Of a stretch of 64,000 bases of DNA, positions 4,190 to 49,236 are shown piece by piece. The DNA lies in contig NC_134025.1 in NCBI RefSeq assembly GCF_964204645.1, positions 15,624,001 through 15,688,000 on the forward strand, given 5' to 3'. This DNA is from Tubulanus polymorphus (Eukaryota; Animalia; Nemertea). The translations under genes were made by a program, and so were the position numbers. Position 1 is the first letter of the stretch; every line of letters begins with the position of its first letter. Below the pieces are notes generated by a model that ran no database searches, was not told where the DNA came from, and was given only the letters and a program-made list of their open reading frames with translations.

Positions 4190-7100
4190 GTGTTCCTACG
4201 CTACGTGTGACGGATTTGTAGCGTTTTCACATGAACGGTTGCAGTAGCGTACACGCAAACCTTCTCCTCCTATTTTACATGAATGGGCTTCTCTACGCAG
4301 CTATGTATAGATCAGGATTTTCCATTCTATTAATAGGACATAATTCAGCGTTCGTATATACACGTGTAGTCGACAGGTGTGCTGTCATTTAGCAGCAAAG
4401 CGTGGCTGGCTGTAGCGTAAGCACAGGCAGCAATCAGAAGTCAAGATTAATCTTAATCATATAACAATATTAACTTTTATTCGCATGAATTAACAATTAA
4501 CATTCTAACGGAACACAGGTATGTTTTAAGTATTGTTTGAATAATAAATCTTCCTCAATTTAAATTTGATTTGCGCATAATTCTCGTTTGGTTTCATTTT
4601 TAGAGATCAAGTTGTGCCTTTAATTCAATTTCGATGCCTTTACATTGTTTGTATTCGACACCTGCTTGTTTCAAATCTGCTTCGCTGAAAGTGAATGGGC
4701 CATGGCCCATTATGTCGAGAGGACCAAAAAACAGCCGCCGTCTGTCGACACTATCGACGTCTGGACGCTTAGGCCAGTCGAAGCTCGTAGCACCGGTTTT
4801 ATGAAGGAATTTCAGTTTCGCTTTGGTGTCTTGAACTTCTAATATCCTGCCGATGTAGAATGTTTTCTCGTAGAAAACAGCGTGGTATTCGCCATCATTG
4901 ATCGCAGGTAGCGGAATCAACTCGCTTTCAGGATCGCTTTCGGGATCGTCCACCTTATGTATTCTATGGTATATATTGAGACATTATAAATGAGAAATAA
5001 CTTATATCAGCTTGTAAATATCTTGTAAAAGTAAATAAAATAACTTGTATTAAATTGTAAATAAAATAACTTGTGTAAAATTGTAAATAATATAACATGT
5101 GTAAAATTGTTAATAAAGTAACTTGTAAATAAAATTGTAGGCCTAAATAAAATTAACAAACTACCGGTATTCATCCCAATGAACTATTTTGAAATAAAGA
5201 CCAACCTGAAATTCTGTTACTAAGGGTACGGTGGATCGAAGTTTACGCTTGTTGTATAATCCAGTGTATACTACATTTTGGCAAATAGACATAGGTTTCC
5301 GTGGATCAGATGGGGCACTAATGCAAACACGACAGAAACAACTAAACTTTTTGACTTCAATATTCGCACTTATACCGCATTTTCTAAAAGCATGAAGGTG
5401 CCTGCTGCCATTTACTGTTTGCACTGAGTTTACAAATGGCTCATCGCGGTTTATCTCGTTAATCGATGTATAAATGTAAGACCGTTTGGTCAAGGGTTCA
5501 TCCAGAAGCAGATTTTTGCTACAAAATTCGAACATATCTGAACCATTCTTGATAATGAACTTTCCGGATGCTATGGCCCGGTCGACTGCTCGATTTATAA
5601 TTCCAATTTCGCCATCCCCTTGACCTTTGCCGTCATCCGAGCCGTAGTAATGTCTTTCAATTGGGATATGTGTTTTAGCAAGGTAACCAAAACAGCCTTT
5701 GCCTTTGTACTGTGAGGAGCAACCGTCCGAAAAGATTATTACTTTTTCAAATTCATTTCCAGTATTTTCAAGAAGCGAGTCGTAAGCTTTCTGAAAATAG
5801 TGTTCTACTGCGTGGAAGTCGTGGTTTATGTCATCCGATATGATGATAAATGCATGTCGCACGGCGGTTTCGGAATTCGGTAATTTATAGTATGCAACAC
5901 ATGGGTGTAATGTAACTTGTCTTTTTCCGAAATACGCGCCTTTGATTTCGTTTTGATAACTAATTTCTCTATTCTTTGCGAAATCTACGATAAACAATGC
6001 CTAATTATCAGGTAAATTTTCGCGTAGGTTTCGATATTGATAAGATTGCCAGCGAGCAGTAAAGGCATGTCGTACAAATGTAACACCACCGCTATTCTGA
6101 AGATCAATTTCAAATTCAGACAAGATCTCGGCTAATATGCCACGCTTTGTAATTAGAGAATATTTTAATCTGCCATTAGAATCCTCGTGTTTTTCCCAGT
6201 GATTCCACGTTATTATCTCGTCAGTTGATATATTGCTATACAAGGCACGGATAGTGTCACCGTGGTCCTTGCATATGTCATATTCAGACAGGCTACACCA
6301 GCGGTTGTAAAAACGACTGGCATCTTATTTAGGACATAAAAGTATGTCGATTAATGAGCCGACGTTCGAAACTTTAATTGAGCTATGAAGCGATAATGAA
6401 CTGATTTTGAATTTAACATTTTCGCAATACACACAGGTACATACTTCTCTTGTAGATGAGAGAAGACAAACGTTTCTGGGCCGCAACAGAGTGAACTTTG
6501 TAAACCCGATTCGTATCTGAGGGTTTTCTTTCTGAAATATACCATATGCTGCTTTTAGAGAGCATGTCATAAGTTAGCCTGGCCCGTGTTTGTTGGCGAA
6601 CCTTTTCTCCGGACGTATAGAGGATATATCCTCCCCATGTATAAAGCACAAATTGTGTTTATTTGGGCCAAGTTAAGTTTAGAGCGCCGTGGTTTTCGAG
6701 TGAGGCCCACTTTTTGGGCTTTGGTAATAGTTTGACGATTGAGCCCAGTTTCTTTACTGAGACGTCTGATACTAACTCTCTTTCTATTCTCGATAAACTG
6801 CAATGCAACTGATTTAACTACGTGTTTATTGCAGTTTTTCACGTCATTGGGAAATTGATCGGATTTTGATGGAAGTGTGGATGAATTTGATTTTTCAAAC
6901 AATTTTTTCACAATAACAGCATATTTTCATATTTTCGGGGAGATTTGGGCATAGCTTTATTGGCTTTGTGTGTTGCATTGTAGAGTGATTGCTTTGAATT
7001 ATATGGGCCGATCTCGTCACCACCCGTGCTACATGCATTTTTTGTCTGGGAATTGCGCTCAGTGGCCGCTCTTTTTCTTCGCCGGTCATACTCTCTTACG

Positions 7101-8844: not shown

Positions 8845-11187
8845 TAGGTACGTGGCTAAACAATGTACGCGCTGTGCGCTGATCTGGTGTGACGCGGTTT
8901 CAGGACTTCCGCGGGGCACCTGTTAGCAAAATCGCTCTGATTGGCCAGTTAAGGGATTCCCAGCGATGTCATCACGTCTATGACATCATAAACATCCGGG
9001 TCTTTCTTCTTGTCAAATTTTCAAGATCGGTGGAGTGGTTGTGATTTGGTGATATTCCGGATTTTCAATGCTTTTTCAATGCCGGAGTCTGTCCAAAGGT
9101 AGGTCTGTTCAGTTTTAAAACTTATAAATGTATTAAATATATTATGTTTGCTGAATAAATATGAAGTTTGAAGTGTGTAAGATCATCAGAACTGTGTCAA
9201 ATAATTTCCGGAAAATTTTGTGTTGCGACGATTGGGGATGCCATCTTGGATTTTTACAACAAATTTGTCGTCGGTTTTCTCACAAAGTTAACGGCTATTC
9301 ATCGTTCCTGCTTCGGTTTTATGGTGTCAAATTATTTAATACAATGCTTTCACATTATATGTCGTGTTGTTTAGGGTATTTTGGGTAGGGTGAGGGAGAA
9401 ATTTGGGTTTCTGTTTTGTTTACAGTTTCTATTAAGACGGTCACGTGACCTGCATCCAGTCTGCTCATTGGCCAACTGGGTTTGACTGGTAAACAAACGC
9501 ACATGTTTTTTTACAGAATGTAATGTACAATGTATTTAGACCCATTTTAAACTAATTTTTTGCACTTTTTTTTTCAGTATGATATGGCTGATGACAGCAC
9601 AAGCAAGGAGCTTACCAAAAAGGGTGTTGGAAGACATTTTTTGGACACGTCATATGGAGAAATAGGCCTACTACAGAGTACTGCATCAATAAACTAGGGG
9701 TCCAGGGACACCATGCCCACTTGGGAAGTGGTTTCAAATGCTCAACAATCTAACCATTTCAATATTCAACGCCCCCTGGTGACCATATACAAAACCAATG
9801 ACCTTGAAACTAACCACAATCATAGAACATGTACGCAGCTACGATTTTGTAATTTATTGTGATAAAAAAATATGCCTCGTTACCAATTTAATATGGAAAT
9901 ACTAAGTTATTCTACTATTCAACGCCCCCTAGTGACCATATCCAAACCCAATGTCCTTGAAACTCACCACAATCATTGAACATGTCATGAGCTAAAACTT
10001 TGCAATTGGTCATGGTAACAAAATATGCCTAGGTACCAATATAATAAGGAAATACTAAGTTATTCTATTATTCAACGCCCCCTAGTGGCCATATAGAATA
10101 ACTAATGTCCTTGAAACTCACCACAATCATAGACAATGTCATGAGCCACAACTTTGCAATTGATTGTGCTAACAAAATATGCATTGGTACAAATATAATA
10201 TAGAAATACTAAGATATTGTATTATTCAATGCCCCCTGGTGGCAATATACAAAAACCAATGACCTCGAAACTCACCACAATCATAATCACGTTAAAAGCT
10301 ACATCTTTCTAATTCATTGTTGTAACAAAATATGCTTAGATATCAATATAATGTCGAAAAACTTTTTCCCACCTACAAATGAGTACTGATGACACCAAGA
10401 TGGCCACCAATTGCGTCATAATTGGCGGATCAAAAATACATATCCCAGGTATAAAACATCCCTTTCCAAAGAATACCCATCAGCAATTGCAATCAGAAAT
10501 GGTAAACCAGTAGGAAGCTACAGGACTCAGAATTTGGGCCAAAATTAACATTTTTGGGCACTAAAAAGGTCACAGGACGGCCATCTTGAGTCCGATCGAC
10601 CCAATTTTTGTTATGCTGATGGGCCCTGGGGAATTCACATATATCCAAAAGATCAAGGTAATTGATCAAAGCGTCTTCAAAATTTCCCTCAAAAAGTTCA
10701 AAAATGTGTAAAAAGTGCTGATTTTGGCGAACAACAATGGCTGCCAGTCGGCCATCTTGAATCTGACAGGGCCAGTTTTTGGGCTGAAGATGTGTCTAGG
10801 GTAGATACATGTGTAACCTAAATATCAAGACATTACCTTGAAGCGTCTTCAAAACTTCCCAAAATAACTGGATTCTGTCTACGGACGGATGACGGACGAA
10901 AAGTGAACGCAAAAGCCCGCTGGGACTAAAGTCCTAAGTGGGCTAAAAAGTTGGAAAGATTTTTCTATAAATTTAACTTGCAGCGATCACGGCTTATCCT
11001 ATTGTTTTACCTTAATTATTCGTGCCAAAATTGTGCTAATTTTCCGATAGTCAAATAACCATAACTTTTTTATTATTTGAGGTACAGAGGCCATCCTGGT
11101 ATCATTTTGTAGCATTTTTAATGCTCGTTCTAACCATATAAGTGAAATTGTAATATGGGGATGTTGAAAATTTTAGCCACGTACCTA
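8845..11187 (+). mobile_element. Non-autonomous TIR DNA transposon (deletion derivative) with a nested HINE
   Basis: 16-bp TIR TAGGTACGTGGCTAAA / TTTAGCCACGTACCTA; 7-bp flanking direct repeat CCATGTC (8838-8844, 11188-11194); internal promoter-like motifs, splice sites and a short ORF start (MADDSTSK...). Confidence 0.65.
9692..10948 (-). mobile_element. HINE/Helentron-type non-autonomous element with four internal ~153-bp tandem repeats
   Basis: Sub-TIRs GCCCACTTGGG / CCTAAGTGGGC, GTCC microsatellite, 3' hairpin + CTAGT, insertion at a T-run; partial copy at ~29602-29970. Confidence 0.75.
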
Positions 11188-12055: not shown

Positions 12056-12911
12056 TACCCTCAATACAGTTTCAAATGGATTTTAATATTTTTTTTTAAT
12101 ATATACAATGGTTGGATTAGGCATAACAGATTATCGTTTTTACACACAACTCTGATACGAGCCCCTGTGATCCTGGACAGTTGAAGACAACAAAAAACTT
12201 AATGTATGCCAAATCACGAGAATAACAAGTTCCTACTGAACGGAACAGCTAAAAATAGGCCTTAAAGTTAAATTCATACCTAATAGACTCATTAAAACTG
12301 AGAATTGCAGCTATCTTCTACATGCGTTGCTAGTGTAATAATCCTGTGGTGCCTACGCTGCGCTATCTGCAGAATTTGCGCGGCGTAAGTTGACTGGCTG
12401 CCGGTCACTATGTATCTTAGACTGGTTGCCGGTCCCTTACCTTCAGAGACCGGTCATCCTCGCTTGCCAGGGGTCCGGTATCACTCCCGAACTCGCTTCC
12501 ACCAGCCCCCTGGCCTCACGAAGCGTGATTTCATTACTGGCGCTGTTGCGCATGACGTCATATATCGATTTGCGAAATACTTCCTTGTTCGGTAAAACGT
12601 TCGCTGATTGGTCCATTTAACGGGAAAACCAACAGAAGTCTACTGACGGTTTGTTACAAGCGCTGTGATTGGTACGACCGGATTCTGGTCGGCCAGTAAC
12701 GACTCCAACGACTCGTGAGGTCAAGGGGTTCGGCGAACAGCTTTAGCGTAGTAGGTTCGAATCCCTTGACGGGTGAAGATGGAGACTGGTTGATCCTTCT
12801 TCTTCTTCTTCTTCTTCCGATATCTGTCAACATCAACTGGTTGATGAAACACAGTGTATAGGTGTGCGCAAATAAATATATACAGACATTATTAATAAAT
12901 TTAGTATTAAT

Positions 12912-12980
12912 ATGATAATGATAATAATAATAATAATAATAATGATGATGATGATGATAATGATAATGATAATGATAATG

Positions 12981-13039
<59 letters not shown>

Positions 13040-13136
13040 GATAATGATAATGATAATGATAATGATAATGATAATGATAATGATAATGATAATGATAATG
13101 ATAATGATAATGATAATGATAATGATAATGATAATG

Positions 13137-13177
<41 letters not shown>
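12912..13177. repeat. (TGATAA)n/(TAA)n microsatellite, left flank of the Penelope-like element
   Basis: Directly visible. Confidence 0.95.
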
Positions 13178-13977
13178 GTTAAGGTGTTTGGGTCCGCTGG
13201 ACCGTTAGAGGCTGGGCAACACAGCCAAGTTCCACGAGGGTGTAGCAATATGTACACATTAGTATGTAGTTTAAATATCCACAGTAGAAAAAGTTGTATT
13301 TAGGTCCGTAAGACCGTTAGAGGCTGGGTGACGCAGCCAGTTCACGAGGGTGTAGCAATGTAACAATTATATCATTCACAGTAGAAATAAAAACGAGTAA
13401 TTCATATTGAGAATGTGAGGTACACATTGTGTTGTTTCTTTTATATATAGTAAACAGGCGTCGGTGTATGACTGTATTATATTGCAAGTCATTGCAAATA
13501 GTACTGATAGCCTAATCAGATAGATGGCGTGTGTATCAGCAACACATTCGAGGCCTTACGGTGGCGGGTAGTGGTGAGAATCGATATGGATGTTAGATTT
13601 GTGCAAAGGTGGGACGGGCTTTCCTCGTCTCGTGTGGAGAGTACTTTCCGTCCTGTCAAAACAGGGTCCGTTGGTGTTGCGAGGGTAATCGCACCGATCA
13701 TCTGTCGGCGTATGTATCAACTACGTCTATATTTCAATCTGTTTGGATTAAGGAGGTTCTTAAAATCATCGATCTGATGTGATCTGCAGCGATTTTTTGT
13801 GTGACCGCCGGGTGGTATCGATTCGACCAGGTATTCCTTGGTTGTCGAATATTGATATAGCGTTATGTTGATAAAACGACACGTCGGGAGTAAATTGACT
13901 GCCCTTAGCATCAGTCCGAGCGGCTGTATATCGAGTCCTGAGAGTGTCTATACATGAGCGGAACGGAAACTGATTTA
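13178..13977 (-). repeat. pLTR, inverted copy
   Basis: Reverse complement of 18910-19708. Confidence 0.9.
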
Positions 13978-14080
13978 AACGCTTTTCACCTTATTTTGCA
14001 TAAATCTTGATTGAAGGATTCGTATGAAGCACATAAAACCGACTATTATTACGGTAATGAGGTTGAGATGGTGGTGTGCC

Positions 14081-15849
14081 TTACACACATCTCGCGCGGA
14101 CTAGAATGTCTCTAAGATTTTTGCCGCGTGTAAATAGTATTCTGGGAGGTTCCTTGAATATTATTCTCAGAGTCGCGTTCGATTGGATTATCTTCCAGTG
14201 TTTTGTAAGCGACTGACGGATATTATCCGTGTTCGGATGGTATTTGGTGATCAGTGAGATTGAATCAAATGAGCGCTTTTTTGTGCGCGTGTGTAAGAGA
14301 TCCGTACGATATCGTTGGTCCGCTTTGTAGATTTGAGCGCGGATTTCGCGAGCACTATAGCCTCGGGCCCGGAGGTAACCCTGTAGTTTTTTACATTGTG
14401 AGCGGTATTCGCTTTCGTCCGAGCAGATTTTCTTAAATCTGAGAGCCTGTGCGTATGCAATGTTGTTGCTGCAGTGAGGCGGGTGACACGATTCTTTGTG
14501 TAGGAGCGAGTGTGCGTCCGTGGGTTTTGTGTACACCCTTGTTGAGAGTTTACCTGAGTTCTCAAAATCTTTCCCTTTGTAGACTTCAACGTCTAGGAAG
14601 GGTACCTTCTCCCTTGATTGTGTCAGTTCGTATTGGATGGTACGGTGTGATTGGTTCATATGTTCGAAAAATTCGAGTAGTTTATCTTCACCGTGGGTCC
14701 AGATTGAGAATATATCATCTATATATCTCCAATATAACATGGGTATAGTATTGTTCGGTGCCGAGCGGAGACATTTAGTCTGGAGATAATGCATGAATAT
14801 GATCGCTAGACTCGGGCTGACTGTTGAACCCATGGCGCAACCCTCTATTTGAAGGCGGTGTTCGTTTTTCCCGAAAGAGAATTCATTTCTCTTCAGTATT
14901 AGATTCAGGAATTGAACGAAGCGTCTTTTGTCTGGACGGCGAACTGCGTATTGTAGCGGGAAGTCATCTAGACTTCTTAGGATGCTACTGATGGCTTCTC
15001 CGTGAGGGATGTTGGTGTATAGACTTTTGACATCCATTGTCACCAATATCGCATCTTTCCGGAGGGGAGGGAGGGAATTGATTTTGTTGAGAAAGTCATT
15101 GGTATCTTGGATGTATGTTGATACTCGACTCGCGATTGGTCTCAGAAAATAGTCCAGATATTTGGATATCTTTTCCGTGGGGCCATTGTTTCCGCTTAGG
15201 ATCGGTCTCCCCGGGTTGTTGACCTTGTGAATTTTCGGTAGAAGGTAGAACTCGGGGATTTGGATATCAGATCCCGGTGTTAGATATAGCCACGTAACAT
15301 GGTCTATTTCTTGGTTGTTTCTCATATCGTCTATGATTCTTTTTCTTTCACTTGTGACTAAAGTAGTGTCGGGTGGAGCGATTGACCGGTAGCTGTTGGT
15401 GTCATTTAGCTGTCTCAGAGCTTCTTTTTTGTAAGAGTCTTTGCTCATGATAGCTATGGCTCCCCCTTTGTCACAGGGTTTTACAATGAGATCTTTATTC
15501 CGATTTAGTTCGTTGATCGCTTTCATCTCGTTTCTCGATAAATTGGATTTGAATTTTTGTGTGAGATTGAGTTTTTTGAGCTCTGTACGCGTTAGTTCAA
15601 TATAACGTTCGAGCCGGCGAACGCCTGATGTAAGCGGATTGAATTGGCTTTTCCCTTTGAAGGGGTGCAGTGAGTTTTTCTCACGGTTAAAAAATATATA
15701 TTTCAACCTAAGGCGGCGGAAGAAAGCTTCGGCGGCCGTGAGAAGTTCGTCCTTCTGTGTCGGTGCATTATTGGGTACGAATTTCAGACCCTTGCTTAAT
15801 GCATTAATGGTGGTTTTGCTAACCACGTGGTCTGATAGGTTGACCACAA
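14081..15849 (-). pseudogene. Inverted 5'-truncated copy of the PLE reverse transcriptase ORF
   Basis: Matches the + strand ORF from VVNLS onward apart from one E/K difference; junction with CAA microhomology at 15847-15849. Confidence 0.9.
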
Positions 15850-16341
15850 CGGACCCTGTTTTGACAGGACGGAAAGTACTCTCCACACGAGACGAGGAAA
15901 GCCCGTCCCACCTTTGCACAAATCTAACATCCATATCGGTTCTCACCACTACCCCCCACCGTAAGGCCTCGAATGTGTTGCTGATACACACGCCATCTAT
16001 CTGATTAGGCTATCAGTACTATTTGCAATGACTTGCAATATAATACAGTCATACACCGACGCCTGTTTACTATATATAAAAGAAACAACACAATGTGTAC
16101 CTCACATTCTCAATATGAATTACTCGTTTTTATTTCTACTGTGAATGATATAATTGTTACATTGCTACACCCTCGTGAACTGGCTGCGTCACCCAGCCTC
16201 TAACGGTCTTACGGACCTAAATACAACTTTTTCTACTGTGGATATTTAAACTACATACTAATGTGTACATATTGCTACACCCTCGTGGAACTGGCTGTGT
16301 TGCCCAGCCTCTAACGGTCCAGCGGACCCAAACACCTTAAC
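15847..16341 (+). repeat. Partial (5'-truncated) pLTR upstream of the ORF
   Basis: Matches the 3' ~495 bp of the pLTR. Confidence 0.9.
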
Positions 16342-16740
16342 ATGTCTTCTTTTTCCTACCCCCGGGTAGAAGCCGTTGTTTCAACGTGAAAATGGCCAAC
16401 ATAGACGGTGTGTCCAGCCACCCACATCGGTAGCAGAATAGCAATATCGGTTCTATTTACAACCAACCATACGGTTCACTGGTCCCTGCTACGGCACGGA
16501 ATTACTTGAGGAATACCAGTAGATCGCTAACTCGAACGATCCCGTGTGGGTAACAGAACTTGCCGTGAACATCACGGTCCACACAATTTATACACAGAAT
16601 CACCCCCCTCATACACTGAAGGAGTGAAAAACCTGATAAATACACAGAAGAACGATCACGCAATTAGCAAATCACAATATATACACACAACACACCACCG
16701 GATGTGTACTACACGACGTCAAGTGACTCAATGATTTTCT

Positions 16741-16831
16741 AGCCAATCAGCGCGTAACAGTGATAATTAGCCTGTAAAACAACAAACTCTCCGATTGGTG
16801 CCCTGCGGGAGCACCCAGAGAGTATAAATAG
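16741..16831 (+). promoter_or_regulatory. Internal Pol II promoter of the PLE (CCAAT, inverted CCAAT, TATA)
   Basis: AGCCAATCAG at 16741, CCGATTGG at 16791, TATAAATA at 16824, ~110 bp upstream of the first ATG (16937). Confidence 0.65.
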
Positions 16832-16936
16832 TTAGCTATTCACTAACTGATCAATCTAGCAGTGTATCTAACCAGACGACACACGCGGAACTCTGCTCAC
16901 AGTATCACGCACTCACATTCCAGTCTTACTCCCCTC

Positions 16937-18805
16937 ATGGGTAGGAGGAAAAACAACCAGTGGAAAAACCACTCAACTGGGTCACGCATCAGCCGAGGTA
17001 AACCCTCCGCTACAACTGCCTCCCAGCACAACAGATTTGTGGTCAACCTATCAGACCACGTGGTTAGCAAAACCACCATTAATGCATTAAGCAAGGGTCT
17101 GAAATTCGTACCCAATAATGCACCGACACAGAAGGACGAACTTCTCACGGCCGCCGAAGCTTTCTTCCGCCGCCTTAGGTTGAAATATATATTTTTTAAC
17201 CGTGAGAAAAACTCACTGCACCCCTTCAAAGGGAAAAGCCAATTCAATCCGCTTACATCAGGCGTTCGCCGGCTCGAACGTTATATTGAACTAACGCGTA
17301 CAGAGCTCAAAAAACTCAATCTCACACAAAAATTCAAATCCAATTTATCGAGAAACGAGATGAAAGCGATCAACGAACTAAATCGGAATAAAGATCTCAT
17401 TGTAAAACCCTGTGACAAAGGGGGAGCCATAGCTATCATGAGCAAAGACTCTTACAAAAAAGAAGCTCTGAGACAGCTAAATGACACCAACAGCTACCGG
17501 TCAATCGCTCCACCCGACACTACTTTAGTCACAAGTGAAAGAAAAAGAATCATAGACGATATGAGAAACAACCAAGAAATAGACCATGTTACGTGGCTAT
17601 ATCTAACACCGGGATCTGATATCCAAATCCCCGAGTTCTACCTTCTACCGAAAATTCACAAGGTCAACAACCCGGGGAGACCGATCCTAAGCGGAAACAA
17701 TGGCCCCACGGAAAAGATATCCAAATATCTGGACTATTTTCTGAGACCAATCGCGAGTCGAGTATCAACATACATCCAAGATACCAATGACTTTCTCAAC
17801 AAAATCAATTCCCTCCCTCCCCTCCGGAAAGATGCGATATTGGTGACAATGGATGTCAAAAGTCTATACACCAACATCCCTCACGGAGAAGCCATCAGTA
17901 GCATCCTAAGAAGTCTAGATGACTTCCCGCTACAATACGCAGTTCGCCGTCCAGACAAAAGACGCTTCGTTCAATTCCTGAATCTAATACTGAAGAGAAA
18001 TGAATTCTCTTTCGGGAAAAACGAACACCGCCTTCAAATAGAGGGTTGCGCCATGGGTTCAACAGTCAGCCCGAGTCTAGCGATCATATTCATGCATTAT
18101 CTCCAGACTAAATGTCTCCGCTCGGCACCGAACAATACTATACCCATGTTATATTGGAGATATATAGATGATATATTCTCAATCTGGACCCACGGTGAAG
18201 ATAAACTACTCGAATTTTTCGAACATATGAACCAATCACACCGTACCATCCAATACGAACTGACACAATCAAGGGAGAAGGTACCCTTCCTAGACGTTGA
18301 AGTCTACAAAGGGAAAGATTTTGAGAACTCAGGTAAACTCTCAACAAGGGTGTACACAAAACCCACGGACGCACACTCGCTCCTACACAAAGAATCGTGT
18401 CACCCGCCTCACTGCAGCAACAACATTGCATACGCACAGGCTCTCAGATTTAAGAAAATCTGCTCGGACGAAAGCGAATACCGCTCACAATGTAAAAAAC
18501 TACAGGGTTACCTCCGGGCCCGAGGCTATAGTGCTCGCAAAATCCGCGCTCAAATCTACAAAGCGGACCAACGATATCGTACGGATCTCTTACACACGCG
18601 CACAAAAAAGCGCTCATTTGATTCAATCTCACTGATCACCAAATACCATCCGAACACGGATAATATCCGTCAGTCGCTTACAAAACACTGGAAGATAATC
18701 CAATCGAACGCGACTCTGAGAATAATATTCAAGGAACCTCCCAGAATACTATTTACACGCGGCAAAAATCTTAGAGACATTCTAGTCCGCGCGAGATGTG
18801 TGTAA
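16937..18805 (+). CDS. Penelope-like reverse transcriptase (622 aa from the first ATG), no GIY-YIG domain
   Basis: VVNLS...LSKGLKF.P, KPCDKG, YLLPKIHK, GRPI, MDVKSLYTNIP, GCAMGS, RYIDDIF, FLDV, YTKPTD; ends NLRDILVRARCV*. Confidence 0.92.
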   Translation: MGRRKNNQWKNHSTGSRISRGKPSATTASQHNRFVVNLSDHVVSKTTINALSKGLKFVPNNAPTQKDELLTAAEAFFRRLRLKYIFFNREKNSLHPFKGKSQFNPLTSGVRRLERYIELTRTELKKLNLTQKFKSNLSRNEMKAINELNRNKDLIVKPCDKGGAIAIMSKDSYKKEALRQLNDTNSYRSIAPPDTTLVTSERKRIIDDMRNNQEIDHVTWLYLTPGSDIQIPEFYLLPKIHKVNNPGRPILSGNNGPTEKISKYLDYFLRPIASRVSTYIQDTNDFLNKINSLPPLRKDAILVTMDVKSLYTNIPHGEAISSILRSLDDFPLQYAVRRPDKRRFVQFLNLILKRNEFSFGKNEHRLQIEGCAMGSTVSPSLAIIFMHYLQTKCLRSAPNNTIPMLYWRYIDDIFSIWTHGEDKLLEFFEHMNQSHRTIQYELTQSREKVPFLDVEVYKGKDFENSGKLSTRVYTKPTDAHSLLHKESCHPPHCSNNIAYAQALRFKKICSDESEYRSQCKKLQGYLRARGYSARKIRAQIYKADQRYRTDLLHTRTKKRSFDSISLITKYHPNTDNIRQSLTKHWKIIQSNATLRIIFKEPPRILFTRGKNLRDILVRARCV

Positions 18806-18909
18806 GGCACACCACCATCTCAACCTCAATACCGTAATAATAGTCGGTTTTATGTGCTTCATACGAATCCTTCAATCAAGATTTATGCAAAATAAGGTGA
18901 AAAGCGTTT

Positions 18910-21316
18910 AAATCAGTTTCCGTTCCGCTCATGTATAGACACTCTCAGGACTCGATATACAGCCGCTCGGACTGATGCTAAGGGCAGTCAATTTACTCCC
19001 GACGTGTCGTTTTATCAACATAACGCTATATCAATATTCGACAACCAAGGAATACCTGGTCGAATCGATACCGCCCGGCGGTCACACAAAAAATCGCTTC
19101 AGATCACATCAGATCGATGATTTTAAGAACCTCCTCAATCCCAAACAGATTGAAATATAGACGTAGTTGATACATACGCCGACAGATGATCGGTGCGATT
19201 ACCCTCGCAACACCAACGGACCCTGTTTTGACAGGACGGAAAGTACTCTCCACACGAGACGAGGAAAGCCCGTCCCACCTTTGCACAAATCTAACATCCA
19301 TATCGGTTCTCACCACTACCCGCCACCGTAAGGCCTCGAATGTGTTGCTGATACACACGCCATCTATCTGATTAGGCTATCAGTACTATTTACAATGACT
19401 TGCAATATAATACAGTCATACACCGACGCCGGTTTACTATATATAAAAGAAACAACACAATGTGTACCTCACATTCTCAATATGAATTACTCGTTTTTAT
19501 TTCTACTGTGAATGATATAATTGTTACATTGCTACACCCTCGTGAACTGGCTGCATCACCCAGCCTCTAACGGTCTTACGGACCTAAATACAACTTTTTC
19601 TACTGTGGATATTTAAACTACATACTAATGTGTACATATTGCTACACCCTCGTGGAACTGGCTGTGTTGCCCAGCCTCTAACGGTCCAGCGGACCCAAAC
19701 ACCTTAACAATAAGAAATCAGTTTCCGTTCCGCTCATGTATAGACACTCTCAGGACTCGATATACAGCCGCTCGGACTGATGCTAAGGGCAGTCAATTTA
19801 CTCCCGACGTGTCGTTTTATCAACATAACGCTATATCAATATTCGACAACCAAGGAATACCTGGTCGAATCGATACCGCCCGGCGGTCACACAAAAAATC
19901 GCTTCAGATCACATCAGATCGATGATTTTAAGAACCTCCTCAATCCAAACAGATTGAAATATAGACGTAGTTGATACATACGCCGACAGATGATCGGTGC
20001 GATTACCCTCGCAACACCAACGGACCCTGTTTTGACAGGACGGAAAGTACTCTCCACACGAGACGAGGAAAGCCCGTCCCACCTTTGCACAAATCTAACA
20101 TCCATATCGGTTCTCACCACTACCCGCCACCGTAAGGCCTCGAATGTGTTGCTGATACACACGCCATCTATCTGATTAGGCTATCAGTACTATTTACAAT
20201 GACTTGCAATATAATACAGTCATACACCGACGCCGGTTTACTATATATAAAAGAAACAACACAATGTGTACCTCACATTCTCAATATGAATTACTCGTTT
20301 TTATTTCTACTGTGAATGATATAATTGTTACATTGCTACACCCTCGTGAACTGGCTGCATCACCCAGCCTCTAACGGTCTTACGCACCTAAATACAACTT
20401 TTTCTACTGTGGATATTTAAACTACATACTAATGTGTACATATTGCTACACCCTCGTGGAACTGGCTGTGTTGCCCAGCCTCTAACGGTCCAGCGGACCC
20501 AAACACCTTAACAATAAGAAATCAGTTTCCGTTCCGCTCATGTATAGACACTCTCAGGACTCGATATACAGCCGCTCGGACTGATGCTAAGGGCAGTCAA
20601 TTTACTCCCGACGTGTCGTTTTATCAACATAACGCTATATCAATATTCGACAACCAAGGAATACCTGGTCGAATCGATACCGCCCGGCGGTCACACAAAA
20701 AATCGCTTCAGATCACATCAGATCGATGATTTTAAGAACCTCCTCAATCCAAACAGATTGAAATATAGACGTAGTTGATACATACGCCGACAGATGATCG
20801 GTGCGATTACCCTCGCAACACCAACGGACCCTGTTTTGACAGGACGGAAAGTACTCTCCACACGAGACGAGGAAAGCCCGTCCCACCTTTGCACAAATCT
20901 AACATCCATATCGGTTCTCACCACTACCCCCCACCGTAAGGCCTCGAATGTGTTGCTGATACACACGCCATCTATCTGATTAGGCTATCAGTACTATTTG
21001 CAATGACTTGCAATATAATACAGTCATACACCGACGCCTGTTTACTATATATAAAAGAAACAACACAATGTGTACCTCACATTCTCAATATGAATTACTC
21101 GTTTTTATTTCTACTGTGAATGATATAATTGTTACATTGCTACACCCTCGTGAACTGGCTGCGTCACCCAGCCTCTAACGGTCTTACGCACCTAAATACA
21201 ACTTTTTCTACTGTGGATATTTAAACTACATACTAATGTGTACATATTGCTACACCCTCGTGGAACTGGCTGTGTTGCCCAGCCTCTAACGGTCCAGCGG
21301 ACCCAAACACCTTAAC
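18910..21316 (+). repeat. Three tandem pLTRs (18910-19708, 19715-20512, 20519-21316) joined by AATAAG
   Basis: ~804-bp period, near-identical units. Confidence 0.95.
19498..19708 (+). ncRNA. Tandem pair of conserved structured RNA motifs at the pLTR 3' end (candidate ribozyme or processing signal)
   Basis: Two diverged copies keep the stems GGCTG/CAGCC and GGTC/GACC and the joiner sequences while the loops differ. Confidence 0.5.

Positions 21317-21381
<65 letters not shown>
21317..21381. repeat. (TAA)n microsatellite: LINE tail and right flank of the PLE
   Basis: Directly visible. Confidence 0.95.
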
Positions 21382-22060
21382 GAGTTTTTAAGCTAAGCGG
21401 TGTGGGAGAGAAGAGTCTTAAAGGCTTCGATACTCTCCGCTGACACAGTATCTGCAGGTAGAGCGTTCCAATCCCTGACTGTTCTGGTATAGAAGGATTG
21501 TCGTTTGATTTCAGTACGGGAGAACTTGACTTGGAAAGCTTTCGAGTGCGATTCTCTAGTTTTACGGACAGATGGAACCAGGCGTGTGCTCGTATCAACC
21601 AAAGTTTGTTCGTTGGCGAGTTTATACAATAGTGTGAGTCTGGCCTGTCTTCTTCTTTCCTGTAGTGACTGCCATTGTAGGTGGGACAACATATCTGTTA
21701 CACTGGATCTATTGTGGTGACGATTTGTGACATATCTTGCAGCTCGATGTTGGATCATCTCCAATCAGTGTATGTCAGTCTGGAGATATGGGTCACAGAC
21801 ACTACTCGCATATTCTACTATGGGTCTGACCAGTGATCTGTAAGCTGTGTCCTTCACATGTATCGAGTTTATGTTAACATTCCTTTTCAGAAATCCAATC
21901 GTTCGATTTGCCTTTTTGCAAAGTTCTTCTATATGAGGTGTCCATGTTAAATTGTTGGTGATGGTTACACCTAGGTACTTTGCTGTCTGTACATGTGATA
22001 GGATATGACCTCGGAGCTTATAGGTGTATTGGTAGGGACGTCCTCTTGTGATACTGAGGA
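21382..22060 (-). mobile_element. 5'-truncated LINE (CR1/L2-group) 3' fragment
   Basis: KYLGVTI...WTPHI...KANRTIGFLKRN...LVRPIVEYAS...LEMIQHRAARYV...SFYTRTVRDWNALP. Confidence 0.85.
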
Positions 22061-22145: not shown

Positions 22146-25100
22146 ATGGGAGAGAGTGAGTACCAGACAGAAAACAATAATGTTAATAAAAATCAATATT
22201 ATTGTCCATATTGTAAAAAATACATCGATAAATCTAATAAATCTAAACATGAAAAATCTTCAAATCATATAAAAAATGTAATAGATTTTGAAACTCCAGA
22301 AAATTCCAATGAAAGAAAAGAACGATTAGAAAATATGAATGTGGATGAAATAAAATGTGAAGTTTGTAATGAATTTATAGTAAAAAGGAATTATAATAGA
22401 CATCTCGAATCACAAAAACACCATCAAAATTTGAGTAATAATGTTTTAGGAAAAGATTATTTTGATGATAAACCTCAAAAAGTAAAAAAACCAACTTCAA
22501 AAACTAAATCCATTTCAAATAAACCTTACGTGGAAAATGTTAGAAATTATATTGATTCACTAGAAATAAAAGATACAATTGAAATATTAGAAACATTACA
22601 TAGTAAAATTGGTCCTGCAGCTATTATATTTAGATTCTTTAAAGGAACAACAATAGAAGATTATAGTAAATTTAATGAAATAATAGAAAAAATACTAGAT
22701 TTGATAACAGATGTTGAATATCCAAAAATTAGAATCTCTGGGAAAGTAAGTTTTATAAAGTCAGAAGAAAAAATGAATTATAATATTCAAACACACTCTG
22801 AAGAAATAATTTCAAAAACACAAATATTAGAGAAGTTAGAAAAAATATTTAATAAATTTAAACGTCATATTGAAGAAAGATATTTTGAGGGTTCTGGCTT
22901 AACATTGAACGAAATTATATATTTAGATTTAAATGTTTATAATACAAAAAGGAATAAAACATCAAAAACTAATAAAATGTTTAAAAATGATTCAAACTTT
23001 ACAACAGAAAAGGATATTAAAGCATCATCTTATATTAAATTACTATTTACAACAAAAGCAGTAATAAATGTTCAAAATGAAGATAATAAATGTTTTCTAT
23101 GGTCAATTATTAGTTGCTTACATCCAACACAGGAAAATGTTTGTAGAATAACAGATTATCGGAAATATGAAACATTATATAAAATTGATCAATATCCAGT
23201 AACTATAAAAATGATACCCAAAATAGAAAAAATTAATAATTTAAAAATAAATGTATTCGAATTAATGCAATTACCAAAGACAAAAGGTGAAAATATTAAA
23301 GATTATACATTGGAAGCTTTATATTTAACAGAATATTATGATGATGAAAATGCTATAGATTTGTTATATTATAAAAAAGATGAAAATGAACATTATATGT
23401 GGTTAAAACAAATTGATTTATTCTTTAGAACAGAAAGTGATCATCATCGTAAAATTTATCTATGTAGAAAATGTTTATCTAAATTTATGACTGAGAATAC
23501 ATTATTAAAACATAAAGAATTATGTGATAATAAAGATTTTTGTAAATTAATAATGCCAACAGAAAAAGATTATAAATTGAAATTTACTAATCATAAATTT
23601 AAGAATATTGATCCATTTGTAATTTATGGGGATTTTGAATCGTTGAATAAAGAATTAACTGATCAAGATAGGAAAGAAATATATAACAAAAAGCAATTAT
23701 TAAAATCAATGGATAAAGGAAATGAATTAAATGAAGACACAATACAAGACCCACCAATTATAAATACAATTAAAAAAGTTCATCAAAGAGCTGCTGCTTA
23801 TGGAATTTATATAAAATCAAATTATCCCGAATTATATGAAAGTCAATATATTTCTTTTAGAGGTGAAGATGTAGATGATTTTTGTGACAAAATGATTGAA
23901 TTAGAAAGTGATTTTGCAAAATTATTAAACAAAAATAAAAGAATAGTCATGACAAAAGAAGATGAAATCGATTTTAATTATGCAACTCATTGTTGTTATT
24001 GTGAAAAACGTTTTTATTCATTTGATAAAAAAGTTAGAGATCATAATCATTTAAATTCTAAATATCGTGGAGCTGCTCATGAAGATTGCAATTTACAAGC
24101 TAAGAAAGTTAATTTCGTACCAATATTATTTCATAATTTATCAGGCTATGATACCCATCTATTTATAAAACAATTATCGGGAAAATTGGGCGCAATTAAT
24201 CAAGAAATAGAAGAATATAATGCTATGAATGGTGTAAATGTAAGAAAATATGATTTTAAACTATTAGCTAAAACATCTGAAAATTATATTTCATTTCAAT
24301 TTGGTTGCATTAGATTTTTAGATTCTTATAGATTTCTAGCAAGTTCATTAGATAATCTATCAAAAAGTTTAGTTGATAATGATTTTGTTATAACTCGATA
24401 TTATTATCCAAATGAACAAGATTTTAAATTATTGAGATATAAAGGCGCAATTCCTTATTCATTTTATAAAACGCACAATGATTTTAATGTAACAGAATTA
24501 TTAAAAGATCAATTTTATGATCAATTAAAAGAGGAGTATGTGAAAGACGAAGTGTTTAATAGAACATTAAATATTTGGAACCATTTTAAGATGAAAAATC
24601 ATGGCGAATTAGTTGATTTGTATTTAAAATCAGATGTTATGATATTGGCTGACATATTTGAAAAATTTAGAGAAGTTAATTTGAATCATTTTAATGTTGA
24701 TCCTTGTTATTGCTACTCTAGTCCTGGTTTAACCTGGCAATGTGGTTTAAAATATACAAATGTAGAATTAGATTTATTAAAAGAACCAGATATGGTTTTA
24801 TTATTTGAAAAATCAATTAGAGGTGGAATTAGTGGTGTTATGGGAGATAGATATTTTAAAGCAAATGATGAATGTAAATTATTATATATTGACGCCAATA
24901 ATTTATATGGTTGGGCAATGATGCAACCTCAACCATATAAAAATTTTATATTAACAGAAGTTGAAAATGATGATAAAACTAATTGGGAAAGCGCAATTAT
25001 GAGTTTAGAAGATGAAGCACCAATTGGTTATTTCTTTGTAGTTGATTTAGAATATCCTGAAAATATAAAGTTTAAAACAAGAAACTTACCTTATTGCCCA

Positions 25101-27217
25101 GAACATTTAACTGTAGATGATAGTTATTTAAGTGAATACCAGAAGAAAATAAAACCGAAAGATCATGTTTTTACAGAAAAATTAATACCTAATCAAAATA
25201 ATAAATACAATTATATTGTTCATTATAGAATGTTAACATTTTATCTAAAACAAGGAATGAAATTAAAGAAAGTACATAGATATATTGAATTTAATCAATC
25301 GAAGTGGTTAGAAAAATATATAGATTTCAATACTCAGCAGAGAACCATATCAAAAACAGATTTTGAAAAAGATTTCTTCAAATTAATGAATAATAGTTTT
25401 TATGGTAAAACATGTGAAAATATTAGAAATAGAAATGATATTGAATTAGTAAATAATTCTGAAAGATTAAGACATTTACAATCAAGTCCTAGATATTTAG
25501 GAAATAAAAGATTTGAAGATTATTTAACAGCAGTTTAATTAAAAAGAACGTCAATGAAATTTAATAAACCTATATTCATTGGTTCAACTGTTTTAGAAGT
25601 ATCAAAATTATTAATGTATGATTTTTATTATAATGTTTTACAACCACTTTTTGGGGAAAAGCATATTGAAATATTATATTTTGATTCTGTAACAGCTGAC
25701 ACCCCAATATTATTAAAATGTAATGATAAAATATTGATAAGAAGAATTTCAGAAATAATTCCAAAACAAAATGAATGTTATATTTCATATGGAGAAAAAG
25801 AATTAATACAAATAAATGGTTTAATGGACAAGAAATGGATGGAAAAAATTAAAGAATATTATTAGGCATAAAACAAATAAGAAAATCTATAGAGTTAGAA
25901 CTAAATTAGGATTTGTAGATGTTACAGAAGATCATAGTTTAATTAAACGAAATGGTGATGAAATAAAACCAACTGATATAAAAATTGGAGATGAATTATT
26001 ACATAAAAGATTTTTCCAAAGAATGAATCATATGTCATTTGATGAAATAATTGATAATATTTATAATATAGAACCCGAAACATTAGAAGAAAAAGAATAT
26101 TTTATCAAAGGATTTTTCATGGGTGATGGTTCAGCAGGTGTGTATAATTATGTTTGGGGTAATAAATATTGTTGGTATTATTGAATAAAGTTGGTTGTTT
26201 ATGCAATCAAGACTTGAAATTATTAGAAAGAATTAAGAAATTCTGTGAAGAAGTTTATTCACATAAAACATTCAAAATCATAGATGTTATGAAATCATCG
26301 CAATGTTATAGAATGCATGTGAATAATCCTAAAGATTTTGCTATAAAATATAATGACAAATTCTATATTCATGCAATAGTGTAAGTAATACTTCAACTAA
26401 AGAAAAGATAGTTCCAGATTATGTATTAAAAGCAAAAAATAATTTAAGAAAATGGTTCTTCATTGGATTCTACGCAGCCGATGGTACTAAAAGTTTCAAA
26501 AACCGCAAAACAATATCTTTAGCTCAAAAAGGAAAAGTTGCTATATCAGGATTAAATATATTATGCAATTCATTAGGCTTTAATATGAATATTGGATTGA
26601 TTAAATCTAAACCAAATTGCTTTAATTTAAGCCATGTAGAAAATGAGTTAACTGAAGAAGTTAAAGATTTATTTGAAATATATAACCCAACAGATTATGT
26701 TTATGATTTATCAACTGAAGATGGTACATTTAACTGTGGATTTCCATTAATAGCAGTCAATACTGACGCCTACATACTAAAAATCAAGACAAATGACATA
26801 ACAAAAGACTTAAAAACATTAAAACATCATTTTGATTTTAGCAATTATCCCAAAGATCATGAACTATTTAGCAATGATAATAAAAAGATTCCTGGTAAGT
26901 TTAAAGATGAATTAGGGGGTGATGAAATGATTGAATTTGTTGGGATAAGAAGTAAAATGTATAGTTACAGAACAAAAGATCATGAAGCTAAAAAGTTAAA
27001 AGGAATAACAAAACATGTGGTTGATAAACATATAGAATTTCAAGATTATATAAAGTGTTTATATAAATCAATTGTAATGAAACACAAAATGAATTGTTTA
27101 AGATCAGAAGATCATGAGATGTACATTAATGAAGTTGAAAAAACTAGTTTAAATCCATTTGATGATAAAAGGCATATTTTAGATGATGGTATAAAAACAT
27201 TACCTTATGGTCATTAA
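22146..27217 (+). pseudogene. polB: Protein-primed family B DNA polymerase (ZnF, putative TP, vOTU-like, exonuclease with EndoVII-like insert, polymerase) interrupted by an intein
   Basis: DNKCFLWSI/HYMW (OTU-like), [48 protein letters not shown]-[intein]-TD, PGKFKDE; nonsense codon at 25536. Confidence 0.92.
25686..26761 (+). mobile_element. Intein with a LAGLIDADG homing endonuclease (PolB motif-C site), frameshifted
   Basis: Block A SVTADTP; block B VDVTEDHSL (~25915-25941); blocks C/E FIKGFFMGDGS (26101) and FFIGFYAADGT (~26456); block F YVYDLSTEDGTF; C-terminal IAVN with +1 Thr; absent from the homologous site at 46498/46499. Confidence 0.93.
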
Positions 27218-27272
27218 AACATAAAATCAATATCATCATAATCGAAATCACTATTGGCTTCTTCATTTTCAT

Positions 27273-28060
27273 TTAATTGTTCAGGTTCTTCTTCCATTCC
27301 ATTTTCTCATTTAAATAAAGTTCTATCTTGTTCCACATTTCATCTCGCTCTCTTTGTTTCTTTTTGTTTGTTAATTCATCAAATGGAATTATAATATCTA
27401 TGTTTAAATAATTTACAATCTTATTTAAAAAGAATTCATAATTAATTGAATCTGTTATTCTATTTTCCAAATGATACATTAATATTTGTGTAAATATTTT
27501 TTTTATATTTTCCATATCTTCTTCTGTTAATTTAGGTTTTTCATGATAATCGTTAAATAATAAATATAAATACCTTTTCTTTTGTTTTGTGTTAAATTTT
27601 GACGGAATAATTGTTTTTATAATATCTTTTTTAGTTATTTCACCATTTTTATTTTCTATTATTTTCATTTTTTCAAGCCATTGCTTATATTCTGGTGTAT
27701 GATCTTCTATAGAAAATATTTTAAAAATTTCATCAAGATAATTTAATTTTGGTTCTATGAGAAAATCTCTAGTTTTTTCTTCACCCAATACATTCTTTTG
27801 CCATCCACATTCATTACAAAATAACACAGTACCTTCTTGTCTAAAAGGTCGCATAACTAAATTGTGGACATTTTCGTTTATAATTTATTGGTAATAGATC
27901 TTCATTTAGCTCCTGGTATTTTCTTACGTTTTCTTTATGTTTTATTGTTCTATTATGTAGATTTGAATTACATGTTGTAATAATCAATTTACAATATTTA
28001 CAATAATATGTTTTTCTTGTTAATTCGTTATATTGTTTTTCTAACTTTTCAACTGTTTCA
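27273..28060 (-). pseudogene. Poxvirus/NCLDV late transcription factor VLTF3 (A2)-like protein with N-terminal zinc finger and zinc ribbon
   Basis: CPQ(F)...CNECG zinc ribbon across a frameshift at ~27850; C-terminal PKLTEEDMENIKKIFTQI...INYEFFLNKI...KKKQRERDEMWNKI resembles the VLTF3 pattern. Confidence 0.6.
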
Positions 28061-29108: not shown

Positions 29109-31472
29109 AAATATAGCTGCAAAGCAGCGATAACGGGTTTTCTGCACAGTCTTAGAATCCTGTTCAACGGTGGATTTCAACAAAGCATTTGATGAGGCTC
29201 AACATCAGCCATTACTAAACAGGCTATTAGGAAACAGTATCAATGATAGGTCGCCCAAATGGCTCAGCAGTTATCTCTGAACGGAAACTTGTAACCGAAA
29301 TCAACGGAACGACTCATCTTTGAATGAGACGGTCTAACTAGTGGAGTCACGCAAGGTAGTATCCTAAGTCGTCTTCTGTTTAATGTCCTGACAAATGACA
29401 TACACAGTAATCCAAAATATACCAGACCGAGTAAATTTCCAAAACGACCTTAACACACTGTTCGACCAAAAAACTTAATGTTCCGACAAAACCACGGGTG
29501 ACAAAACCAAAATTATGAATTGTCGCGAGTGACAAAAACAAAATATTGAATTGTTGCGTGCGACAAAACCGAAATAATGAATTTTCGCGGGCGACAAAAC
29601 CAAACTAGGGGTCCAGGTACACCATGCTCACTTGGGAAGTGGTTTCAAATGCTCAACAATCTAACAATTTCAATACATAACGCCCTCTAGTGACCATATA
29701 CAAAAACCAATGACCTTGAAACCCACCACAATCATAGAACATGTGAGCAGCTATGATTTTGTATGATTGTGATAACAAAATATGCCTCATTACCAATTTA
29801 ATATGGAAATACTAAGTTATTCTACTATTCAACGCCCCTGGTGACCATATGCAAAACCCAATGACCTTAAAACTCACCACAATCGTAGTACATGTCATGA
29901 AATACAACTTCGCAATTGATCATAGTAACAAAATATGCCTAGGTACCAATCTAATAAGGAAATACTATAGGTTTTGTGATATCTATAATAAAATGGCAGA
30001 ATTACACGTGAAAAACGGATGCTAGAATGAATTTTTAAGATTTACGCCCCCTAGGAATTAGAAGAGGAAATAATATGTGAGGGGAAGGCAGCAGAAACCC
30101 TTATAATAAATATAGCTGCAAGCAGCGATAACGGGTTTCTGCCTTTCTGGATAGAATGTCGTACAAGGGTGCGTGCAAATGTCGTTCAGGGATGCGAGCA
30201 AAGATTTCACCCTGAATCAGTTCGCTACATTCCGTTTTTTAAAGAGTGCCACCTAGGGGTCAACTCACAACATGGATATGTTGACCCACATGTGCTACAG
30301 CGCGCATGTGCTACTACGCGCAAAGTACTAATGCTCCAGGTTTTGGGGGAAATAACATCGAGAAGAACGAAGCTACGGTGTTTTTACCATTCCCTAGTGA
30401 TAGTTTAAGCGCATATTCGGTTATAGCTCCGACAAAAAGTCGACTAGATAAGAAAACCGAATTTGGCCCAAAGCACAAATCTGGCCTATAGGGTAAACTA
30501 TGCAGAAGGGAAGGCCTTCTTAGTGTTACTATTAGTAGAGGAGTGACAAGTCAGTCTAACAAGTCAAGCGATCAGATGGGGACTACAATTCACATATAAA
30601 AATGACGTCCTATAAACAGTATAAAAACATAATCACGAACGGTACCATCACTCCCCATTACTGACTGTCACTGGTCTCTGGCTAGCAATCATTCTTTATC
30701 GGTGCAGTGGGTAGGTATTTTCAACTGACTTTGTTATTCTATGACATTACCATCGCCGCTGCATCACGATGTGATGTACATGTACAAGGGACCTCCAATT
30801 TGTGATGTATAAACTGACTTTAGACCGTTTAATATTGACGATAAGGAGGTATCACCGACGCTGACATTTTCTTACGCTAACTAGTATGACCCGCCTTTTG
30901 GACCGGACCAATTCAATTCAATTAAGAAAACGCGAACCGGTACAATAAATAAACAAACCGCTGTTGATTATTCGAAGTATTGATATCCACGAACAAAACT
31001 ATCATAGAATGTTTAAAAGGAACTGTTTTTAATAACAGTATGAATAAACTTACTTCACAAACAAGGAAGTACATTTTTAATTTGTGAATGATCGAACCCC
31101 AGTTATTCACAGTAACCTGTGATTTGGATATTCTCGGAGCCTTCCTTCTTTTTTTATTTATGAAATGACGTCACAAACTTTCAAATTCGCGCCAGTACGC
31201 CAGTATGCGCGCCATGATTGATGATTGCTATTTCCACCGGTGTTATCTTTAAGTAACTTCAAGTTTAAAATAGGAAGCACAGTACATCCATAGAAACTAC
31301 GCGCAGCAAGAGACTGTTATATTATTATCAGAGTTTAACATTTCGTTTCAAAGTTGTTAGTAGTCAAATCTAATAGAAGATGATTTTTTTGTGACGAAAC
31401 TCAGTGGAAAATATGTTAAAATAATAATCAGGAGGAATCCAATAGGGTTTTTGCCGAGGCAGCAGAAACCCT

Positions 31473-42778: not shown

Positions 42779-43010
42779 CTTAAAATAATCATATACATGA
42801 ATAACATTTAAATTGACAGATTATTCAATATAAAAGTGTAAGCTCTTATAGAATAGATATATAGATATATTTACAACATTATTTCAATATTCATATTTGT
42901 ATGAGTTAGATTTTTAAACATTAAAAGTGTCAGTAAAGTGTGATTGAAATAATTCATATATAAATCATTGAACTTCTAAAATCAATTAAAAAAAAAAAAT
43001 TAGTATTAAA
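42779..43010. repeat. Left subterminal inverted repeat (pairs with 60275-60495)
   Basis: For example, TAAATCATTGAACTTCTAAAATCAATT and its reverse complement at ~60299-60325; the repeat runs almost to the ATG of both terminal genes. Confidence 0.88.
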
Positions 43011-47412: not shown

Positions 47413-47429
47413 GAAAATATGTAAAATAA

Positions 47430-48188: not shown

Positions 48189-48205
48189 TTTTTTTCACTA
48201 TATAA

Positions 48206-48768: not shown

Positions 48769-48792
48769 ATGTGTAATTTTTTTACTAAATAA

Positions 48793-49215: not shown

Positions 49216-49236
49216 TAATTTTTTTTTGCTAAATAA

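Follow-up and report, generated by a model that had tools for sequence, protein, structure and literature searches.

An endonuclease-less Penelope-like element of Tubulanus polymorphus in a compound insertion between microsatellite tracts

Introduction

By the standard split, Penelope-like elements (PLEs) that bear an endonuclease (EN) spread through chromosomes, and those without one stay at telomeres. Here we describe an EN-less PLE of the nemertean Tubulanus polymorphus, which has an intact open reading frame (ORF) for a reverse transcriptase (RT) and lies in a single compound insertion between AAT-rich microsatellite tracts. The copy under study (the query) is found in a 64-kb stretch of contig NC_134025.1 (assembly GCF_964204645.1, positions 15,624,001 to 15,688,000, forward strand), which we refer to as the window; all positions below are counted from its first letter.

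Neptune, a group said to go back to work by Arkhipova in 2006, shares with the query its RT type (GLKF, DKG, no fingers insertion), the presence of pLTRs (the element's tandem-forming units), an inverted 5' arm and a microsatellite site. The query differs from Neptune in having no linker, no GIY-YIG domain (CCHH) and no hammerhead core, and its clade lies outside the Neptune1_Nv-like branch. The linker, CX2-6CxxC, is present in 71/71 of the query's nearest EN-bearing homologues, and one EN-bearing locus (L058) has the stretch QPPGAFRCGKNCLTCP in common with Neptune1_Nv (PMC8557442, Fig S2). The spacing from motif A to B' in the query is Neptune-like when judged by eye against Fig S1 of the same paper.

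Athena and Coprina resemble the query in consisting of an RT only and in the reliance on an existing 3'-OH end; the query departs from them in carrying no reverse-complement telomeric repeats and no hammerhead, in its single ORF, in its inverted and tandem pLTRs, and in its microsatellite and AT-rich flanks. The features by which either group is recognized (EN, linker and hammerhead for Neptune; telomeric repeats and hammerhead for Athena/Coprina) are all missing from it. PLE-X elements of Selaginella and Chara are also EN-less and are dispersed or site-specific rather than telomeric, with an insertion mechanism that their authors left open, but they belong to the Naiad/Chlamys clade and are equipped with hammerheads, CxC and an N-terminal extension of a special kind (PMC8557442). 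Nor does the query show the Naiad/Chlamys combination (N-terminal GIY-YIG, CxC, DKA, fingers insertion), having DKG and 34 residues before VVNLS, or that of the Hydra type (DKT, RWK, no GxKF/Y, C-terminal EN), having GLKF, DKG and no EN. Non-LTR retrozymes (bioRxiv 10.64898/2026.07.22.740005) are comparable in that the query's 804-nt unit forms tandem arrays with a fixed start in several copies; they differ in that the query has no hammerhead core and its array is joined to an intact ORF. Among the features that mark the query as a PLE is a partial tandem that makes pLTRs, together with an inverted 5'-truncated copy.

Losses of the EN have been called not unusual, the Neptune-like MjPLE01 and the dispersed PLE-X being named as cases (PMC8557442). 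MjPLE01, from Marsupenaeus japonicus (Koyama et al. 2013), was assigned to Coprina in one later paper; going by the descriptions in papers that cite it (PMC8557442, PMC13159263), it shares with the query the lack of an EN, a Neptune-like RT and an invertebrate host. A loss inside Neptune has already been published, a point on which a preliminary description of this DNA, contrasting the query with mainly telomeric EN-less PLEs, needs amending. Titles and abstracts of the literature yielded no description of the query's lineage or of the wider assemblage to which it belongs, members of which may be held in Repbase or Dfam.

Results

An intact reverse transcriptase that ends at the thumb

The ORF encodes 622 aa with intact RT motifs (MDVKSLY, GCAMGS, YIDD and FLD, as well as GLKF and DKG), and finishes directly after the thumb, without a linker or GIY-YIG domain. 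As the preliminary description had stated, the N-terminus is short (34 basic-rich residues, with VVNLS beginning at residue 35); the stop, which it placed right after NLRDILVRA, does fall at the end of the thumb, but three residues intervene, the C-terminus reading NLRDILVRARCV before the TAA. The sole Pfam match of the ORF is RVT_1 (E 3e-10), and a PDB search with its sequence gave no match. The top PDB fold matches of its AlphaFold2 model (29-row alignment, mean pLDDT 88) are telomerase RTs (3du5 first, E 5e-9), and its top sequence homologues are PLE RTs. The element is a Penelope-like retroelement: its RT is of the kind that PLEs have, a sister group of telomerase RT.

Search for a hidden endonuclease

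A GIY-YIG profile made from 71 EN-bearing homologues (their C-terminal tails) scored at most 0.4 bits in the six frames of the whole window; the same profile scored above 90 bits in 57/79 metagenome loci. No CX2-5CxxC linker follows the thumb before the ORF closes, and no EN match lies upstream of the RT, where Naiad/Chlamys elements carry an N-terminal GIY-YIG. A frame within the pLTR (18896-19120), considered as a decayed EN, was rejected: it has no Pfam match and lies outside the profile's top ten places.

In principle, a near-identical EN-bearing master might have given rise to the query recently through a stop or deletion, or an EN exon might be reached through splicing. A donor-like GTAAGG overlaps the stop, a good acceptor at 18938 is used by the gene model P0001, and seven reads of run X5 leave the element at 18797 (the only loose end near the stop, among 6 of the 9 loose-end rows listed). 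However, the 124 GT-AG donor-acceptor pairs between the last 100 nt of the ORF and the end of the first pLTR yield at most 83 aa and a GIY-YIG score of at most 1.1 bits, and the sequence after 18797 in the seven reads matches the window at 12455 (29/30 letters), with the frame closing after 24 codons. In the X5 raw reads (aligned at 80% likeness, so that relatives below 80% identity escape, and bearing a sample label different from that of X1-X3), depth at the stop codon is ~77 and 0/19 variant rows affect it; contigs of runs X1, X2 and X3 (Logan) pass through the stop unbroken. Locus L001, a close relative, ends at the very same point and has no GT donor there, and the closest EN-bearing proteins are at most 41% identical to the ORF. 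A hidden EN of either kind is thus largely refuted, and we consider it very improbable. The earlier claim that no GIY-YIG is present is borne out, and so are its expectations that genomic copies keep the stop, that no spliced or frameshifted GIY-YIG exon would be found, and that there is no sign of a near-identical EN-bearing master.

The gene model P0001 itself predicts a splice of GT 18333 to AG 18938, which would remove both thumb and stop. From the one run that may be RNA, no reads aligned to the element, a result that speaks neither for nor against expression or splicing.

One compound insertion with an inverted arm and tandem units

Self-BLAST places the ORF in one compound insertion (13178-21316) with inverted and tandem parts, set between (AAT)n tracts (Table 1). 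What the preliminary description had taken for two copies are two arms of this insertion, joined through a 3-nt overlap, and the element, to which it had assigned 16937-18910, also includes the 5' region and the three pLTR units. The claim that both share a stop is correct. The left arm is 99.55% identical to 17037-19712 over 2677 nt, and the arms agree at 6/7 ORF sites where the window differs from the read majority, which argues for one parent copy or conversion and not for two independent insertions. Since the arms represent a single event, their identity provides no independent sign of youth; the recent movement that had been deduced from it is retained on the strength of the read identity across the family, given below.

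Table 1. Coordinates of the compound insertion and its parts in the window.
Feature	Position	Strand	Remarks
Target tract on the left, (AATGAT)n passing into (AAT)n	12912-13177	.	TRF, 44.5 units; abuts 3' end of left arm
Left arm, 5'-truncated inverted copy	13178-15849	-	ORF from ~codon 34; TAA 14081-14083; one pLTR, 13178-13976
CAA, 3-nt overlap of left arm with upstream partial pLTR	15847-15849	.	Junction sequence
Upstream partial pLTR	15847-16342	+	Equals 19214-19709; self-BLAST 99-99.8%; TATA-like box at 16073
5' region before ORF, 594 nt	16343-16936	+	Candidate promoter motifs
Intact ORF, 622 aa	16937-18805	+	ATG at 16937; TAA at 18803-18805
Spacer from stop to first pLTR unit, 104 nt	18806-18909	+	Self-BLAST
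Three head-to-tail 804-nt pLTR units	18910-19714, 19715-20518, 20519-21316	+	End in CACCTTAAC
Twin 65-nt motif, two 5-bp hairpins each	19528-19591, 19638-19702	+	85% repeat; precedes AC-rich 3' end
Right target tract, (AAT)21.7	21317-21381	.	3' tail of minus-strand LINE remnant

Both outer ends of the insertion are 3' ends of the element (CACCTTAAC), fused directly to the microsatellite on opposite strands; a junction of the host with a 5' end is lacking, as is a one-sided tail at either of them. The opposite-strand joint between the arms is also present in the X5 raw reads (two rows of 7 reads), so the insertion is probably shared between individuals. Junctions between pLTR units read AATAAG, and 14 X5 reads start at 18910 with different flanks. 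On the right, the target tract is the (ATT)n tail of a decayed LINE ORF2 3' end (21382-22050, minus strand), presumably CR1/L2-like.

The TATA-like box in the upstream partial pLTR suggests a promoter role for this segment. Motifs in the 5' region are ones that we take to be CRE-like (16715), AP-1-like (16724), CCAAT (16743), reverse CCAAT (16793) and TATA (16823). A block upstream of the ATG (GATTGG..GGGAGCA..GTATAAATAG, spanning reverse CCAAT and TATA) is common to the query and L001, and its loose pattern is found in 6 other loci as well. Many copies of the family hold an extra segment at 16853, ~30 nt past the TATA, where 48+21 reads have loose ends; it is at least 226 nt long in one contig and absent from the copy in the window.

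The 3' end and the search for a ribozyme

A scan for hammerhead cores on both strands of 13171-21330, from which unusual variants might escape, found none; the corresponding scan of EN-bearing loci with enough flank found a core in 24/31. Rfam returned three weak, unrelated matches, with no ribozyme family among them. The hairpins of the twin 65-nt motif keep their stems and vary in their loops, and the motif folds no better than shuffled sequence (z -0.5 to -1.6). These hairpins also resembled hammerhead stem II, an idea that we abandoned on account of the differing core letters; the twin motif is a possible RT-binding or start signal.

Reads and contigs show discrete 3' ends at 19692, 19698, 19703 and 19709, with mixed, mostly AT-rich flanks (for X5, loose ends and 3' flanks are the best-supported rows, with 78 further rows beyond them). 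The microsatellite priming proposed in the preliminary description fits the query locus; in the reads, however, the 3' loose ends with the best support are flanked by mixed AT-rich sequence and not by a single microsatellite.

A young family in several copies

In X5, the ORF is covered at a depth of 60-75, the 5' region at ~40 and most of the pLTR at 103-164 (at least 108 except in one bin), and 1673/1932 X5 reads aligned to the element are at least 95% alike. The family is multi-copy and, from this family-wide read identity, young. Allele and junction counts, taken without a single-copy control, suggest ~10 ORF copies per haploid genome. In one copy of the family, loose ends on both sides of 18827 suggest that a small DNA element has inserted there, whose inverted termini they resemble.

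An old endonuclease-less lineage adjoining Neptune

The best homologue, P0001, is a gene model from T. polymorphus and is 96% identical; next come P0002 (53%, 625 aa), P0003 (50%), P0004 (56%, a fragment) and P0005 (41%, 636 aa). The complete ones (P0002, P0003 and P0005) end no more than 12 residues from the query's stop point. An IQ-TREE tree of 59 rows, chosen by hand from 223, places the query with P0002, L001, P0003 and P0005 in a clade with 100/99 support, 5/5 of whose members are EN-less, and this clade is unchanged in a fast tree of 207 rows. A profile search added no further members to it, a word-free search of 50% representatives gave the same three near matches, the longer, fused homologues reached at most 37% identity, and viral contigs contained no relative. 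Over the whole non-coding regions, similarity to L001 and L025 is no better than to shuffles; only the short promoter block aligns, in L001. As far as these sequences indicate, the loss of the EN is old and clade-wide, the closest relatives (41-56% identity) all being EN-less; here and below, the EN-less label mostly reflects where the predicted protein ends, with DNA seen for L001 (192 nt only after the match), L008, L018, L025, L030, L032 and L080.

EN-less sequences are numerous beyond this clade. A first tree held 118 homologues (2/120 having been dropped for short matches), of which 33 end at the thumb, 71 have a tail and 14 are unclear; the best 150 clusters at 50% identity comprise 31 that end at the thumb, 93 with an EN and 26 unclear. 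In the 207-row tree, 44/51 EN-less rows fall on one side of a branch with support 96, in four groups that are free of EN-bearing rows and intermixed with 21 EN-bearing rows, and the remaining 7 are scattered on the opposite side, with the Neptune1_Nv-like rows. The query clade adjoins the Neptune1_Nv-like branch without falling into it; these trees are unrooted, which makes loss and gain of the EN indistinguishable in them, and they lack reference sequences of the named PLE clades. A single clade of all EN-less rows had support 97 in the first tree but was broken when more rows were added and appeared in 0/200 bootstrap trees; its rejection by the approximately unbiased test is weak (p 0.038), and the group had been named after the first tree was seen. 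Of the account given in the preliminary description, the likeness to EN-bearing Penelope/Neptune-type elements agrees with the Neptune-like neighbours in the trees, and the lack of an EN stands; the "independent loss" in a young element, however, is an old clade-wide state in one of several EN-less lineages near Neptune.

Named hosts in the EN-less groups include Oculina patagonica (P0183) and Nematostella vectensis (P0094). One EN-less group (P0173, P0184, P0196 and P0271; ~850-900 aa, with a long N-terminal extension and clusters of up to 93 members) includes one member named from the coral Oculina. L107-L129 carry a decayed PLE in a block that recurs about every 30 kb in contigs filed as bacterial chromosomes, which are probably eukaryotic contamination; we rejected them as separate insertions, since they are parts of one duplicated block.

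Two EN-less relatives look telomeric from their sequence. L133 (G001:C588, 1-12090), which the trees put in one of those four groups, forms a tandem of 6.15 kb that holds an EN-less RT, degenerate TTAGGG blocks and a second ORF of 363 aa upstream of the RT. The more distant L132 (G002:C2, 1-20000) consists of five head-to-tail EN-less PLE units with a period of ~3.9 kb and also carries a second long ORF; (CTAGGG)20 blocks stand at two of the junctions. It is a chain of the telomere type within a bacterial genome bin. Such head-to-tail chains would be expected if the family were mainly telomeric or subtelomeric, like Coprina or Athena, and the query copy a rare internal or subtelomeric stray. 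We regard this as improbable: CCCTAA occurs neither in the query unit nor in L001, a telomeric array is missing from the 64-kb window (which has a single TTAGGGTTAGGG, at 61645, in a degenerate context), the 3' loose ends listed are not telomeric repeats, and the layout is inverted rather than a polarised chain. The "internal site" of the preliminary description stands in the sense that the window is free of telomeric arrays, and means no more than that.

Proposed priming from existing 3' ends or a borrowed nick

We favor, at a probability of roughly 0.5, the reading that the query belongs to an old EN-less lineage next to Neptune whose RT copies its own RNA from existing 3'-OH ends in AT-rich or microsatellite DNA. 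A transcript from the candidate pLTR promoter would span the whole unit, and the RT would start within the AC-rich end, at the discrete 3' ends listed above, as PAc does, for which an internal start in the AC-rich region has been shown (PMC11167929). The primers would be 3'-OH ends already present at breaks or nicks in AT-rich DNA or microsatellites; double-strand-break priming is the stated route for EN-less PLEs (PMC3846280). At the query locus, a single parent copy may have served to extend both ends of one (AAT)n break, with the resulting pair of cDNAs then joined through the 3-nt CAA overlap, which would generate the inverted arm; the tandem 804-nt units would have arisen by template jumping or later unequal exchange. 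The two 3' ends that face outwards, one on each strand of the tract and neither with a tail, speak for this route. So does the variation within the ORF: of the minor variants among the X5 copies, 18/25 are synonymous, where 34% would be expected for transitions (p 1e-4), so that selection maintains the RT of the element in the absence of a nuclease.

Several points weigh against it. Inverted and tandem layout is that drawn for EN-bearing PLEs (Craig et al. 2021, PMC8557442), and together with the microsatellite bias it is typical of them, so that anatomy cannot separate host breaks from a borrowed nuclease. One insertion site only was seen complete, and its target, being a microsatellite, leaves no target-site duplication to be read. 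The count of synonymous variants comes from the best-supported 40 of 305 rows plus the ORF rows of the read alignment used for the stop.

Because the layout and the ATT-rich target match those of EN-bearing PLEs, the main rival is a nick supplied in trans by an EN-bearing Neptune or Naiad element (possibly as a heterodimer) or by a LINE EN, with only the RT step being the element's own. The canonical layout and the microsatellite target are both tied to EN-bearing PLEs (PMC8557442); PAc, for which a dimer is predicted, cleaves 5'-ATT-3' in either strand (PMC11167929); the target here is a LINE tail; and the 71/71 neighboring tails have the Cys linker proposed to favor microsatellites. Against these stand the lack of cross-mobilisation in Adineta vaga (not seen, PMC3846280), the fact that neither end of the insertion has a tail, and a tblastn search of the window with 7 homologues, which shows no other PLE ORF. 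On balance we think a nick in trans unlikely, though far from negligible.

Other features of the window

Two Polinton/Maverick-like regions (22146-27884 and 42990-60274) contain DNA polymerase B, integrase, an A32-type ATPase and a weak capsid match; their polymerase regions are ~80% alike and split over several ORF pieces. The left flank of the insertion (12400-12911), which ends in (AATGAT)n, contains a stretch resembling tRNA box B besides motifs of the CRE-like and reverse CCAAT types; as the 7 X5 reads that leave the element at 18797 link it to this flank (from 12455), the flank may be another mobile repeat. A 153-nt tandem repeat family occurs at two places (9763-10352 and 29679-30013), and a 279-aa frame on the minus strand (5161-6000) has a weak RNase H-like match (E 0.22), possibly a transposase remnant.

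Discussion

Craig et al. (2021, PMC8557442) left open the insertion route of the few dispersed EN-less exceptions among PLEs. The query presents the canonical inverted and tandem layout without a nuclease or hammerhead of its own, and so bears on what causes that layout. Tentatively, we suggest that aquatic animals carry a large, unnamed assemblage of EN-less PLEs beside Neptune (31/150 clusters), and that the lineage described here has left the telomeres and dropped both nuclease and hammerhead, to become an autonomous RT that patches AT-rich breaks from both ends inside chromosomes.

If this were true, the element would count as a minimal mobile RT of TERT size (622 aa), on which one could test directly if an EN is needed for the inverted PLE signature; since the family is intact, young and compact, it should be amenable to purification and to the published PAc assay system. 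The many EN-less clusters suggest that the current PLE classification misses a sizeable group, and, as part of that group looks telomeric, it may matter for ideas on the origins of telomerase.

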